Of a stretch of 64,000 nt of DNA, positions 8,992-22,160 are shown in pieces. Position numbers and translations under genes: made by a program. Position 1 is the stretch's first letter, and every line of letters begins with the position of its first letter. The stretch comes from Escherichia coli (GTDB taxonomy: Bacteria > Pseudomonadota > Gammaproteobacteria > Enterobacterales > Enterobacteriaceae). The notes beneath the pieces are model-generated. The model made no database searches. It was not told where the DNA came from and saw only the letters and a list, made by a program, of their open reading frames with translations. The stretch lies in the NCBI RefSeq assembly GCF_030384885.1, contig NZ_CP128613.1; one strand, written 5' to 3'.

Positions 8992-9654
8992 ATGGATTAT
9001 ACGCTCACCCGCATAGATCCCAACGGTGAGAACGACCGTTACCCCCTGCAAAAGCAGGAGATCGTAACCGACCCTCTGGAGCAAGAAGTTAACAAAAACG
9101 TGTTTATGGGCAAGCTCAATGACATGGTTAACTGGGGTCGTAAAAACTCAATTTGGCCGTATAACTTCGGTCTTTCCTGCTGTTACGTTGAGATGGTGAC
9201 TTCGTTTACCGCGGTGCATGACGTGGCACGTTTTGGCGCAGAAGTATTGCGTGCTTCGCCGCGTCAGGCTGACCTGATGGTGGTTGCAGGAACCTGCTTT
9301 ACCAAAATGGCACCGGTTATTCAGCGTCTGTATGACCAGATGCTGGAACCAAAATGGGTTATCTCAATGGGGGCCTGTGCCAACTCTGGCGGTATGTACG
9401 ATATTTATTCCGTTGTGCAGGGCGTCGATAAATTCATTCCGGTTGATGTGTATATCCCGGGCTGCCCGCCACGTCCTGAAGCGTACATGCAGGCATTGAT
9501 GCTGTTGCAGGAATCTATCGGCAAAGAACGTCGTCCGCTCTCATGGGTGGTTGGCGATCAGGGCGTTTATCGCGCCAACATGCAATCAGAGCGCGAACGC
9601 AAGCGCGGTGAACGCATTGCCGTTACCAACCTGCGTACACCTGACGAGATTTAA
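8992..9654 (+). CDS. nuoB: NADH-quinone oxidoreductase subunit B (N2 Fe-S cluster)
   Basis: 220 aa; conserved CCY...GxCxxxGG...CPP cysteine motifs. Confidence 0.95.
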
Positions 9655-9747: not shown

Positions 9748-11550
9748 ATGGTGAACAATATGACCGACTTAACCGCGCAAGAACCCGCCTGGCAGACCCG
9801 CGATCATCTTGATGATCCGGTGATTGGCGAACTGCGCAACCGTTTTGGGCCGGATGCCTTTACTGTTCAGGCGACTCGCACCGGGGTTCCCGTTGTGTGG
9901 ATCAAGCGTGAACAATTACTGGAAGTGGGTGATTTCTTAAAGAAACTGCCGAAACCTTACGTCATGCTGTTTGACTTACACGGCATGGACGAACGTCTGC
10001 GCACACACCGCGAAGGGTTACCTGCCGCGGATTTTTCCGTTTTCTACCATCTGATTTCTATTGATCGTAACCGCGACATCATGCTGAAGGTGGCGCTGGC
10101 AGAAAACGACCTGCACGTACCGACCTTCACCAAGCTGTTCCCGAACGCTAACTGGTATGAGCGTGAAACCTGGGATCTGTTTGGCATTACTTTCGACGGT
10201 CACCCCAATTTGCGCCGCATCATGATGCCGCAAACCTGGAAAGGTCACCCGCTGCGTAAAGATTACCCGGCGCGCGCTACCGAATTCTCGCCGTTTGAGC
10301 TGACCAAAGCCAAACAGGATCTGGAGATGGAAGCCCTGACCTTCAAACCGGAAGAGTGGGGGATGAAGCGTGGCACCGAAAATGAAGACTTCATGTTCCT
10401 CAACCTCGGTCCGAACCACCCGTCGGCGCACGGTGCTTTCCGTATCGTTTTGCAACTCGATGGCGAAGAGATTGTCGACTGCGTACCAGACATCGGTTAC
10501 CACCATCGTGGTGCGGAGAAAATGGGCGAGCGCCAGTCATGGCACAGCTACATTCCGTATACCGACCGTATTGAATATCTCGGCGGCTGTGTTAACGAGA
10601 TGCCGTATGTACTGGCGGTAGAGAAACTGGCCGGGATCACCGTACCGGATCGCGTTAACGTCATTCGCGTAATGCTTTCTGAGCTGTTCCGCATCAACAG
10701 CCACCTGCTGTATATCTCGACCTTTATTCAGGACGTCGGCGCGATGACGCCAGTGTTCTTCGCCTTTACCGATCGTCAGAAAATTTACGATCTGGTGGAA
10801 GCAATCACTGGTTTCCGTATGCACCCGGCGTGGTTCCGTATTGGCGGCGTAGCGCACGACCTGCCGCGCGGCTGGGATCGCCTGCTGCGTGAGTTCCTCG
10901 ACTGGATGCCGAAACGTCTGGCGTCTTATGAGAAAGCGGCGCTGCAAAACACGATTCTGAAAGGCCGTTCCCAGGGCGTAGCCGCCTACGGCGCGAAAGA
11001 GGCGCTGGAGTGGGGCACCACTGGCGCGGGCCTGCGTGCTACCGGGATCGACTTCGATGTGCGTAAGGCGCGCCCTTATTCTGGCTATGAAAACTTCGAT
11101 TTTGAAATCCCGGTTGGTGGTGGTGTTTCTGACTGCTACACCCGCGTAATGCTGAAAGTGGAAGAATTGCGTCAGAGTCTGCGCATTCTTGAGCAGTGCC
11201 TCAACAACATGCCGGAAGGCCCGTTCAAAGCGGATCACCCGCTGACCACGCCGCCGCCGAAAGAGCGCACGTTGCAACATATCGAAACCCTGATCACCCA
11301 CTTCCTGCAAGTGTCGTGGGGGCCGGTGATGCCTGCCAATGAATCTTTCCAGATGATTGAGGCGACCAAAGGGATCAACAGTTACTACCTGACCAGCGAC
11401 GGCAGCACCATGAGTTATCGCACCCGTATCCGTACGCCGAGTTATGCGCATTTGCAGCAAATTCCGGCGGCGATCCGCGGCAGCCTGGTGTCTGACCTGA
11501 TTGTTTATCTGGGCAGTATCGATTTTGTTATGTCAGATGTGGACCGCTAA
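9748..11550 (+). CDS. nuoC: NADH-quinone oxidoreductase fused subunit C/D
   Basis: 600-aa ORF (or ~596 aa from ATG at 9760, MTDLTAQEP); N-terminal NuoC-like and C-terminal NuoD-like halves in one frame. Confidence 0.95.
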
Positions 11551-13387: not shown

Positions 13388-13439
13388 CCGAATTTCGATT
13401 AACGCTCAGTCTCTGACTGAGAAAACTGGAAGCATGCTA

Positions 13440-18263: not shown

Positions 18264-18562
18264 TCCCCTTACAACATGGACTGATCCTCGCGGCAATCTT
18301 ATTCGTTCTTGGCTTAACCGGTCTGGTTATCCGTCGCAATCTGCTTTTTATGCTGATTGGTCTGGAAATCATGATTAACGCCTCTGCGCTGGCCTTTGTG
18401 GTCGCCGGAAGCTACTGGGGCCAGACCGACGGTCAGGTGATGTACATTCTCGCCATCAGCCTCGCGGCGGCGGAAGCGAGTATCGGCCTTGCGCTGCTGC
18501 TGCAACTTCACCGTCGTCGCCAGAACCTGAACATCGATTCAGTAAGTGAGATGCGCGGATGA
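18260..18562 (+). CDS. nuoK: NADH-quinone oxidoreductase subunit K
   Basis: 100-aa membrane protein; overlaps nuoJ and nuoL by 4 nt. Confidence 0.95.
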
Positions 18563-20400
18563 ACATGCTTGCCTTAACCATTATTTTGCCATTGATTGGC
18601 TTCGTCTTGCTGGCGTTCTCCCGTGGGCGCTGGTCTGAAAACGTCTCAGCGATCGTGGGCGTAGGCTCTGTGGGCCTGGCGGCGCTGGTAACCGCCTTTA
18701 TTGGCGTCGATTTTTTCGCTAACGGCGAGCAGGCATACAGCCAGCCGCTGTGGACGTGGATGTCGGTAGGCGACTTTAATATCGGTTTCAATCTGGTGCT
18801 GGACGGCCTGTCGCTGACCATGCTCTCGGTGGTCACCGGTGTCGGTTTCCTTATTCACATGTACGCCTCCTGGTACATGCGTGGTGAAGAGGGCTACTCT
18901 CGCTTCTTCGCCTACACCAACCTGTTCATCGCCAGCATGGTGGTTCTGGTTCTTGCCGACAACCTGCTGCTGATGTACCTCGGCTGGGAAGGCGTTGGCC
19001 TGTGCTCCTATCTGTTGATCGGTTTCTATTACACCGATCCGAAGAATGGCGCAGCGGCAATGAAAGCGTTTGTCGTGACCCGTGTGGGTGACGTGTTCCT
19101 CGCTTTCGCGCTGTTCATTCTCTACAACGAACTGGGCACCCTGAACTTCCGTGAAATGGTGGAACTGGCACCCGCGCACTTTGCTGACGGCAATAACATG
19201 CTGATGTGGGCGACGCTGATGCTGCTGGGCGGTGCGGTTGGTAAATCTGCGCAGCTACCGTTGCAGACATGGCTTGCCGACGCGATGGCGGGCCCGACGC
19301 CTGTCTCCGCGCTGATCCACGCCGCAACGATGGTAACCGCGGGTGTCTACCTGATCGCCCGTACCCACGGCCTGTTCCTGATGACGCCAGAAGTTCTGCA
19401 TCTGGTGGGTATTGTCGGGGCAGTGACGTTGCTGCTGGCCGGTTTTGCCGCGCTGGTACAGACCGACATCAAACGTGTTCTCGCTTACTCCACCATGAGC
19501 CAGATTGGCTACATGTTCCTTGCGCTTGGCGTACAGGCATGGGATGCGGCGATTTTCCACTTGATGACCCACGCGTTCTTTAAAGCGCTGCTGTTCCTGG
19601 CATCCGGTTCCGTCATTCTGGCCTGCCATCACGAACAGAACATCTTCAAGATGGGCGGTCTGCGTAAATCTATTCCGCTGGTTTATCTCTGCTTCCTGGT
19701 GGGTGGTGCAGCACTGTCGGCACTTCCGCTGGTTACTGCGGGCTTCTTCAGTAAGGATGAGATCCTCGCCGGTGCGATGGCGAATGGTCATATCAATCTG
19801 ATGGTGGCAGGTCTGGTCGGTGCGTTTATGACCTCGCTCTACACCTTCCGTATGATTTTCATCGTCTTCCATGGGAAAGAACAAATTCACGCTCACGCCG
19901 TGAAAGGGATTACTCACAGCCTGCCGCTGATTGTGTTGCTGATCCTTTCCACCTTCGTTGGCGCACTGATTGTACCGCCGCTGCAGGGCGTGCTTCCGCA
20001 AACTACGGAACTGGCGCACGGCAGCATGTTGACCCTGGAAATTACCTCAGGCGTGGTCGCGGTGGTCGGCATTCTGCTGGCAGCCTGGCTGTGGCTGGGT
20101 AAACGTACTCTGGTGACCTCCATCGCCAACAGTGCGCCGGGCCGTCTGCTGGGTACCTGGTGGTACAACGCCTGGGGCTTTGACTGGCTGTACGACAAAG
20201 TGTTCGTTAAGCCATTCCTGGGTATTGCCTGGTTACTGAAACGCGATCCGCTGAACTCAATGATGAACATCCCGGCTGTCCTTTCCCGCTTTGCAGGTAA
20301 AGGTCTGCTGTTAAGCGAGAACGGTTATCTGCGCTGGTATGTGGCATCCATGAGCATCGGTGCGGTCGTGGTGCTGGCACTGTTGATGGTACTGCGTTGA
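18559..20400 (+). CDS. nuoL: NADH-quinone oxidoreductase subunit L (antiporter-like)
   Basis: 613-aa polytopic membrane protein. Confidence 0.95.
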
Positions 20401-20630
20401 GTTGTTGGCTGAGTGAATATACCCGGCGTTGCGCCGGGTCTGTGAACTAAGAATAAATTTTAGGTAACTGTTCCTGAAGTACAGGCGTCATCGGCGAAGT
20501 CAGACCGGATACCGCCAGCGCACAGCAACCGGAGCGTACTTAAGTACGTGAGGATTGCGAGCACTGCCGGGATTCGGGCTGGCAAGTGAGATAGCCTGAG
20601 CAGGAGTAAATATAAGGGACATACTTAGCT

Positions 20631-22160
20631 ATGTTATTACCCTGGTTAATACTAATCCCCTTTATCGGCGGCTTCTTGTGCTGGCAGACCGAACGCTTTG
20701 GCGTCAAGGTGCCACGCTGGATCGCGCTGATCACCATGGGATTGACGCTGGCGCTGTCGCTGCAACTGTGGTTGCAGGGCGGTTATTCACTGACGCAATC
20801 TGCCGGAATTCCGCAGTGGCAGTCTGAATTCGACATGCCGTGGATCCCGCGTTTTGGTATCTCTATTCATCTCGCCATTGATGGTCTGTCGCTGCTGATG
20901 GTCGTTCTGACCGGTCTGCTCGGCGTGCTGGCGGTACTTTGTTCGTGGAAAGAGATCGAAAAATATCAGGGCTTCTTCCACCTCAACCTGATGTGGATCC
21001 TGGGCGGCGTTATCGGCGTGTTCCTTGCCATCGACATGTTCCTGTTCTTCTTCTTCTGGGAAATGATGCTGGTGCCGATGTACTTCCTGATCGCACTGTG
21101 GGGGCATAAAGCTTCTGACGGTAAAACGCGTATCACGGCGGCAACCAAGTTCTTCATTTACACCCAGGCGAGTGGTCTGGTGATGTTGATTGCTATCCTG
21201 GCGCTGGTTTTTGTTCACTACAATGCGACCGGCGTCTGGACCTTCAATTATGAAGAGCTGCTGAATACGCCGATGTCTAACGGCGTGGAATACCTGCTGA
21301 TGCTGGGCTTCTTCATCGCCTTCGCAGTGAAAATGCCGGTGGTTCCGCTGCATGGCTGGCTGCCGGATGCGCACTCTCAGGCACCGACTGCCGGTTCCGT
21401 TGACCTCGCGGGGATCTTGCTGAAAACCGCCGCTTACGGTTTGCTGCGTTTCTCTCTGCCACTGTTTCCGAACGCGTCGGCAGAGTTCGCGCCAATCGCC
21501 ATGTGGTTGGGTGTTATCGGCATCTTCTACGGTGCGTGGATGGCCTTCGCCCAGACCGATATCAAACGTCTGATCGCCTACACCTCGGTTTCCCACATGG
21601 GCTTCGTGCTGATTGCTATCTACACCGGCAGCCAGTTGGCCTACCAGGGCGCGGTCATTCAGATGATTGCTCACGGCTTGTCGGCGGCGGGTCTGTTTAT
21701 TCTCTGCGGTCAGCTCTATGAGCGTATCCACACCCGCGATATGCGCATGATGGGCGGTCTGTGGAGCAAGATGAAATGGCTGCCAGCACTGTCACTGTTC
21801 TTTGCGGTGGCAACGCTTGGGATGCCGGGCACCGGTAACTTCGTCGGCGAATTTATGATTCTGTTCGGCAGCTTCCAGGTTGTCCCGGTGATTACCGTTA
21901 TCTCTACCTTTGGGCTGGTCTTTGCATCTGTTTATTCGCTGGCGATGCTTCATCGCGCTTACTTCGGTAAAGCGAAAAGCCAGATTGCCAGCCAGGAACT
22001 GCCAGGGATGTCGCTGCGTGAGCTGTTTATGATCCTGTTGCTGGTGGTGCTGCTGGTACTGCTGGGCTTCTATCCGCAGCCGATTCTGGATACCTCGCAC
22101 TCCGCGATTGGCAATATCCAGCAGTGGTTTGTTAATTCCGTTACTACTACAAGGCCGTAA
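20631..22160 (+). CDS. nuoM: NADH-quinone oxidoreductase subunit M (antiporter-like)
   Basis: 509-aa polytopic membrane protein. Confidence 0.95.
   Translation: MLLPWLILIPFIGGFLCWQTERFGVKVPRWIALITMGLTLALSLQLWLQGGYSLTQSAGIPQWQSEFDMPWIPRFGISIHLAIDGLSLLMVVLTGLLGVLAVLCSWKEIEKYQGFFHLNLMWILGGVIGVFLAIDMFLFFFFWEMMLVPMYFLIALWGHKASDGKTRITAATKFFIYTQASGLVMLIAILALVFVHYNATGVWTFNYEELLNTPMSNGVEYLLMLGFFIAFAVKMPVVPLHGWLPDAHSQAPTAGSVDLAGILLKTAAYGLLRFSLPLFPNASAEFAPIAMWLGVIGIFYGAWMAFAQTDIKRLIAYTSVSHMGFVLIAIYTGSQLAYQGAVIQMIAHGLSAAGLFILCGQLYERIHTRDMRMMGGLWSKMKWLPALSLFFAVATLGMPGTGNFVGEFMILFGSFQVVPVITVISTFGLVFASVYSLAMLHRAYFGKAKSQIASQELPGMSLRELFMILLLVVLLVLLGFYPQPILDTSHSAIGNIQQWFVNSVTTTRP

Follow-up and report, generated by a model that had tools for sequence, protein, structure and literature searches.

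The 230 bp that separate nuoL from nuoM in the Escherichia coli nuo operon analyzed here hold two RNA-hairpin modules: a GC-rich stem-loop shortly after the nuoL stop codon and a 122-nt dispersed palindromic repeat that lies inside a small host hairpin ahead of the nuoM ribosome-binding site. The second module is a known kind of feature, an intergenic palindromic repeat, of which the nuoL-nuoM copy is a new instance. It recurs elsewhere in the genome, it is present in some strains and absent from others, and it forms a conserved hairpin whose two sides covary; the plus strand of the spacer carries neither promoter nor terminator signals. We consider it probable on balance that the two modules, co-transcribed in the nuoA-N mRNA, have a structural or stability role with a modest effect. 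The first-pass annotation of this DNA correctly read the spacer as a site of structured, RNA-type elements and not of coding sequence, but it missed the main content, the repeat at 20478-20599, as well as the fact that in E. coli the spacer as a whole exists as two alleles.

The nuoL-nuoM Spacer Is the Longest in the nuo Operon and Contains Two Hairpin Modules

Within the window (the whole 64,000-nt stretch of DNA that was analyzed), the nuoL ORF (18559-20400) and the nuoM ORF (20631-22160) leave a spacer of 230 bp at 20401-20630. These coordinates agree with the earlier description of a long, non-coding spacer, the longest in the operon. The accompanying statement that every other nuo junction is 3-60 bp or an overlap was slightly off, since nuoB ends at 9654 and nuoC starts at 9748, leaving a gap of 93 bp that is second only to nuoL-nuoM. 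The features of the junction are as follows.

20398-20400, plus strand: nuoL stop codon TGA (ORF 18559-20400; nuoL annotation in matching E. coli records)
20421-20439, plus strand: stop-proximal GC stem-loop, 8-bp stem and UUG loop (fold, inverted repeat, single copy per genome)
20446-20469, plus strand: A/U-rich single-stranded linker AACTAAGAATAAATTTTAGGTAAC, a candidate endonuclease site (read from the sequence; centroid fold)
20471-20477, plus strand: left foot of the host hairpin, TTCCTGA (empty versus filled sites across genera; folds)
20478-20599, plus strand: palindromic repeat core, 122 nt (dispersed repeat; covariance-model match, including feet, at 20470-20606)
20513-20569, plus strand: apical core, model positions 44-100 (alignments A4 and A5; most conserved part of the family)
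20600-20606, plus strand: right foot of the host hairpin, GCAGGAG (pairs with the left foot; comparison of genera, folds)
20614-20619, plus strand: nuoM Shine-Dalgarno sequence AAGGGA (unpaired in predicted folds; ATG at 20631)
20540-20737, minus strand: spurious 65-aa ORF (overlaps the repeat and the conserved nuoM start in antisense)

The GC stem-loop is placed 21 nt after the nuoL stop codon. Its arms lie at 20422-20428 and 20432-20438 (CCCGGCG-TTG-CGCCGGG), and A20421-T20439 extends the stem to 8 bp; the GC hairpin that had been placed at about 20419-20437 is thus real, with its true position about 2 nt further to the right. The RNA fold has a predicted energy of -20.5 kcal/mol (z = -3.6), matched by none of 200 shuffles, and an imperfect extension of the stem-loop spans 20409-20451. 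The left part of the spacer matches only one place per genome. For O157:H7 strain TR01 (H105; NZ_CP033605.1, 3159418-3159458), this unique part matches in its right half only, which may reflect a disruption or rearrangement of the junction.

A hairpin at this position recurs outside E. coli. Citrobacter freundii retains the same post-nuoL hairpin with one G-C pair changed to G-U, and 69 spacers of 60 nt or more in other Enterobacterales include 64 with a strong GC hairpin or a REP within 60 nt of the nuoL stop codon. The sequences of these 64 hairpins differ, and none is followed by a T-run. The hairpin in the window is thus one case of a structure that keeps its position while its sequence varies. 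A recurring post-nuoL hairpin that lacks a T-run fits a stability or processing role, and a structural or stability element of the kind suggested for the spacer is plausible.

A strong GC hairpin directly after nuoL could also be read as a device for attenuation or intrinsic termination that keeps nuoM-N expression below that of nuoA-L. However, a terminator scan of 20401-20630 found no intrinsic terminator: 20421-20439 was not called, and no T-run follows the GC stem-loop, the long hairpin, or the positional equivalents of the former in other genera. Furthermore, the cell requires the subunits of Complex I in equal amounts, which also argues against such a device. We give this reading almost no weight and return to a stability or processing role for the post-nuoL hairpin.

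The two hairpin modules are separated by the linker at 20446-20469, which is mostly unpaired in the centroid fold; cleavage might take place within this A/U-rich segment. At the other end of the spacer, the Shine-Dalgarno sequence AAGGGA stands 11 nt before the nuoM ATG, in keeping with the strong AGGGAC-type ribosome-binding region that had been noted ahead of nuoM. The stretch at 20587-20630 (GAGATAGCCTGA..CTTAGCT) is near-invariant across E. coli, Salmonella arizonae, Citrobacter, Phytobacter, and Raoultella, and the type of Shine-Dalgarno region found in the 230-bp haplotype is common to Citrobacter, Raoultella, and Phytobacter. A long-range helix that joins 20408-20415 to 20622-20628 in the predicted folds was discarded, as it is not kept in C. 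freundii when the alignment is inspected by eye. We also observed that the initial ~60 nt of nuoM (20631-20690; alignment A2) are almost invariant between genera, synonymous positions included, which suggests a constraint on the translation-initiation region.

The Repeat Lies inside a Pre-existing Hairpin Ahead of nuoM

Scanning one genome per species with NuoM yielded 80 Enterobacterales loci, whose nuoL-nuoM spacers range from 14 to 289 bp. The element is present at the junction in 25 of the 80 species, always in the same orientation and just upstream of the nuoM ribosome-binding site; its carriers extend from Escherichia, Salmonella, and Citrobacter to Kosakonia, Shimwellia, Pantoea, Erwinia, and Mixta. 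Where the element is missing, a small hairpin follows a conserved GAATTCGTTGAAAATC motif and precedes the Shine-Dalgarno sequence, and the stem of this empty-site hairpin covaries between genera (AGGTCC..GGGACT, AGGCCTC..GAGGCC, and AGGCCCC..GGGGCC). In element-bearing species, about 121 nt lie inside the loop of this same small hairpin, and empty and filled sites share their flanks. The repeat segment is likewise missing from K-12, Klebsiella, and other spacers that are homologous in the rest of their sequence. In the window, CCTGA occurs at 20473-20477 and again at 20595-20599, where the element ends; as a candidate target-site duplication, it has no exact counterpart in other genera.

The junction also houses other repeats. 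REP/BIME sequences are found there in K-12 and several Citrobacter. In Serratia (L056:5785-6000, L057, L074, and L082), a canonical ERIC with a 95% match to the ERIC core stands directly upstream of the nuoM Shine-Dalgarno sequence, a few bases further downstream than the element does. With REP/BIME, the element family, and canonical ERIC present in different lineages, this junction has gathered three kinds of palindromic repeat.

At the junctions that carry it, the element is well conserved. Its identity to the window copy exceeds that of nuoM third-codon positions in nearly all species, the three most divergent copies excepted: the values for element and third positions are 0.95 and 0.75 in C. 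youngae, 0.90 and 0.71 in Raoultella, and about 0.78 and 0.62 in Pantoea.

Covariation Strongly Supports a Long Hairpin

The full hairpin (20470-20606; 137 nt) has a predicted folding energy of about -55 to -60 kcal/mol (z = -4.4 for the fold at -55 kcal/mol) and ends 7 nt before the Shine-Dalgarno sequence. We assembled an alignment (A4) of 27 copies, made up of 23 from the nuoL-nuoM junctions of different genera, 2 from pheS, 1 from frr, and 1 from a plasmid. Its consensus hairpin has 36 pairs, and 95.7% of the cells form standard pairs. Nineteen of the 36 pairs have changed on both sides; none of 500 shuffles reached the observed values, and slid controls paired at only 23-34%.

We then built a covariance model (R1), against which the window element scores 156.5 bits, scanned metagenomes with a 16-base core pattern, and kept new members at E < 1e-7. 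The scan and the model together added 64 family members with G+C contents of 0.48 to 0.70. Across this wider family, 26 of 36 pairs show double changes, with a covariation score of 0.455 versus 0.146 for shuffles; the wider-family alignment (A5) was fitted to the model and thereby favors the modeled structure, and the invariance of the right-arm core words in this set is imposed by the search pattern. Taken together, the long hairpin is strongly supported by covariation.

The apical core consists of a stem (CGTAC/GTACG), a purine-rich 5 x 5 internal loop (CCGGA/GAGGA), and further stems below, and it occurs alone in some organisms (core-only matches L111, L113, L101, L092, and L139). Its core words CCGGAG and AGTACGTGAGGA (20531-20556) recall the sarcin-ricin loop of 23S rRNA (AGUACGAGAGGACCGGAG). 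The resemblance is probably coincidental, because the covariation-backed fold pairs CGTAC with GTACG.

We also asked on which strand selection acts, as G-U pairs are possible on the mRNA-sense strand only. The nuoL-nuoM copies have 68 G-U pairs versus 14 A-C, which favors the sense strand; however, family copies in antisense orientation show an excess of G-U over A-C as well (35 versus 25), so this strand test on its own is no proof of selection at the RNA level. The compensatory changes themselves could stem from DNA-level processes, such as template switching between the arms, or from a requirement of mobility.

The Element Belongs to a Widespread Family That Behaves as a Mobile Palindrome

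The segment 20482-20599 has 4-7 matches of 75-80% identity in almost every E. coli genome, each in unannotated intergenic DNA. The best further E. coli copies lie in the spacer between the pheM leader and pheS and in the pyrH-frr spacer, oriented as the genes are. No further copy was found inside the 64-kb window. Plasmids carry the element too: E. coli pKTa005_1 has a copy flanked by genes for an RND permease and an acyltransferase (L090:1454-1592), and a Yersinia frederiksenii plasmid has one in the xylA-xylB spacer (L213:1458-1595). Beyond the enterobacteria, R1 members are present in Comamonas odontotermitis and Aeromonas caviae. When orientation was scored against both neighboring genes, 23 copies were opposite to both, 11 matched both, and 13 lay between convergent genes. 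The occurrence of copies in both orientations, together with the G-U excess in antisense copies, indicates that the family behaves as a mobile palindrome.

One alternative is that the element works on DNA: its apical core would be bound, or used for recombination, by a protein such as a transposase-like enzyme or a nucleoid protein, and its hairpin would matter as a cruciform or single-stranded DNA fold and not as RNA. Distant taxa share a highly conserved apical internal loop and stem, both orientations are found, and the same haplotype seems to have passed between species, all as a DNA-level element would have it. On the other hand, no associated enzyme gene lies near the copies examined, G-U pairs are tolerated at several positions, and RNA over half of such an element is recorded in Rfam as a Xanthomonas sRNA family, sX9. 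We therefore regard this alternative as quite improbable compared with a role of the hairpin on the nuo mRNA.

Two Spacer Alleles Segregate in E. coli, and One Is Shared with Salmonella

The window is 100% identical to E. coli strain 2013C-4282 and about 99% identical to O157:H7 strains. Among 5426 complete E. coli genomes, 724 (13%) carry the 230-bp allele, all at 99% identity or more. The remaining 87%, K-12 included, have a 163-bp spacer that can be aligned to the 230-bp allele at its very ends only. The K-12 spacer (L001:401-563) has a REP-type hairpin, GTAGGTCGGATAAGCCGCC..GGTGCATCCGACACTAC, that is without repeat annotation in the RefSeq K-12 records examined.

The 230-bp spacer is not confined to E. 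coli. It is identical at 229 of 230 positions to that of Salmonella enterica subsp. arizonae CCUG 6322T, while the flanking 200-bp windows are 82-93% identical. Salmonella is itself dimorphic at the junction, as seen in ten NCBI genomes that share the CCUG 6322T-type NuoM protein (L214-L223). Five of the ten have the 230-bp haplotype, identical to the window at 228-229 of 230 positions, with nuoL at 85-86% and nuoM at 88-89%; the other five have a 250-bp spacer in which the element is present and the remainder differs. The simplest reading of these comparisons is a recent short-patch transfer of the 230-bp haplotype between species. The high conservation of the element could partly reflect horizontal exchange and not purifying selection.

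These distributions bear on the main rival to a stability role, namely that the element is a tolerated passenger: a decaying, non-autonomous, MITE-like palindrome in a tolerant junction, with no effect on nuo expression, whose hairpin would be kept since unfolded insertions are harmful or by DNA-level palindrome dynamics. As expected of a passenger, 87% of E. coli genomes and 55 of the 80 species lack the element, three unrelated kinds of palindromic repeat occupy the same junction in different lineages, and copies of the family are found in either orientation and in unrelated surroundings. Against this, the same site and orientation are retained from Escherichia to Pantoea and Erwinia, its conservation exceeds that of synonymous sites in nearly all compared species, and many compensatory changes have accumulated in copies fixed in place. 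We thus hold a passive insertion to be possible but rather unlikely and continue to favor a structural or stability role.

The Spacer Shows No Sign of a Promoter, a Small RNA Gene, or a Small ORF

The spacer is long enough for an internal promoter or an independent small RNA gene, both of which the first-pass annotation had entertained, and the case of sX9 shows that a discrete RNA can arise from relatives of the element. No sigma-70-like site is present on the plus strand of 20401-20630, and the minus strand has one versus 0.8 expected, which is at chance level; the proposed promoter is not borne out. At a permissive threshold, an Rfam search of the spacer returned chance-level microRNA matches and a weak sX9 match (16 bits, E 2.3; gathering score 44). 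With no significant Rfam family at the site and no terminator, the proposed small RNA gene likewise found no support, and no conserved small ORF is present in the spacer. Either kind of gene element is, in our judgment, highly improbable. Over the entire window, one Rfam family reaches its gathering score, the nuoG motif (RF01748) at 13390-13432 on the plus strand (50.3 bits). A literature search for transcript ends or processing at the E. coli nuoL-nuoM junction returned nothing relevant; its one match concerned Streptomyces antisense RNAs.

The 65-aa minus-strand ORF had been judged spurious, and our comparisons concur. It lies antisense to both the repeat and the conserved start of nuoM. 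Neither S. arizonae nor C. freundii keeps its ATG, and the C. freundii sequence has an internal stop.

Discussion

We suggest the following model, which is built on predicted folds and comparative sequence data. The element extends a pre-existing small hairpin ahead of the nuoM Shine-Dalgarno sequence into a 137-nt hairpin, and compensatory changes have preserved both hairpin structures of the spacer. On the mRNA, the order of hairpin, A/U linker, and hairpin would keep the 230 untranslated nucleotides folded, and a folded spacer may limit Rho loading and RNase access. The linker would offer an endonuclease site; after cleavage, the upstream product would end with a 3' hairpin and the downstream product would start with a 5' hairpin, such that both could be protected. 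The nuoM ribosome-binding site is predicted to stay unpaired downstream of the long hairpin. If the element alters Nuo expression, it probably does so only modestly, given that an unrelated REP-type spacer of 163 bp takes its place in 87% of E. coli genomes; the element is dispensable, as most E. coli strains and many genera are without it.

The model can be taken further. The 57-nt apical core could be a recognition site, the family shared by Enterobacterales, Aeromonas, Comamonas, and Xanthomonas-like organisms an mRNA processing or stability module, and the exchange of the haplotype a selection-driven transfer of a working cis-element. We find this extension doubtful and put it forward as speculation.

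For the nuo operon, the consequences are small: its long spacer amounts to a hairpin plus an inserted palindromic repeat that most strains lack. The value of the junction lies more in what it offers as a system. It provides a natural allele pair, 230 bp versus 163 bp in otherwise near-identical operons, which is suited to testing how an intercistronic palindromic repeat affects the stability of mRNA segments and the translation of a downstream gene. It also provides a non-coding 230-bp haplotype that some E. coli and some Salmonella share at 99% identity or more, with a difference of 11-15% in the flanking genes. Lastly, the repeat family shows strong covariation and ranges well beyond the enterobacteria, yet Rfam holds only the half-element sX9.

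Several known systems resemble the junction or its parts. The nuoG motif (RF01748) is also a conserved hairpin RNA in an intergenic junction of the nuo operon; it differs in its position (the nuoF-nuoG spacer), in its length of 43 nt, and in its sequence, which is unrelated to that of the element, and it is not dispersed as a repeat. The Xanthomonas sRNA sX9 (RF02228) aligns antisense to the 5' half of high-GC family members, where one match passes the gathering score (L092:6260-6334, minus strand, 47.5 bits) and another reaches 39 bits (L108:2273-2354, plus strand). However, sX9 models 76 nt of one arm and not the entire palindrome, and the window copy scores only 16 bits. sX9 is among the "sRNAs" most frequently annotated in bacterial genomes (PMC9029176), as expected if it belongs to a repeat. 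By sequence, it appears to be a half-element and not a free-standing sRNA gene family.

The element shares with MITE-like mobile palindromes a presence/absence polymorphism at orthologous sites, and its family shares with them the many copies in unrelated contexts and both orientations. We first suspected a canonical ERIC/IRU, since rejected: the arms and the TATACCC...GGGTATA termini of the 127-nt E. coli ERIC consensus (PMC2759123, Table 1a) found no match. The alignment to this consensus covers the central 21 nt only (18 of 21 identical; score 27 versus a shuffle mean of 15.5), so the element is not a canonical ERIC. Like ERIC/IRU, it is an imperfect palindrome of ~120-140 nt, present in multiple copies in transcribed intergenic regions of enterobacterial operons. 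Unlike it, the element was found in 4-7 copies per genome, versus 19 IRU annotated in K-12 (PMC5172473), and Serratia ERIC scores 21 bits against R1, at the apex only. Two further candidates were set aside: RU-3 (Delihas) is a double REP of the BIME type and so not the element, and RU-2/YPAL is unrelated in sequence.

The original K-12 annotation lists a class "RSA" of six copies of 150/151 bp (PMC5172473, Table 1), the sole K-12 repeat class listed there whose length and copy number are about right. Queried with the window copy, K-12-derived genomes have 5 matching places at E <= 0.001, a number that would allow for six copies but is not a full census. The pheM-pheS copy and many metagenome copies reach ~150-160 nt with outer inverted arms, in line with the RSA length, whereas the nuoL-nuoM copy is 122-137 nt and without the outer arms of the 150-nt form. 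By elimination, and going by the 1999 survey by Bachellier et al., the family is presumably the RSA of K-12. We conclude that it is probably RSA, the name being given by copy number, length, and elimination and not by comparison with a reference sequence. The RefSeq K-12 record has no repeat feature annotated at either pheM-pheS or nuoL-nuoM.

REP/BIME sequences and intercistronic stabilizer hairpins likewise place a GC-rich hairpin shortly past a stop codon within an operon, and REPs protect upstream mRNA against 3' exonucleases. The GC stem-loop at 20421-20439 is present once per genome and has no match to the REP consensus, and so is not of the REP family; REP-type palindromes fill the equivalent position in K-12, C. 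youngae, and Raoultella. In Yersinia operons, co-transcribed ERIC sequences alter the stability of neighboring mRNA segments via RNase E (PMC2229807). The stability role that we propose for the nuoL-nuoM spacer would parallel both this effect of co-transcribed ERIC and the known role of REP.
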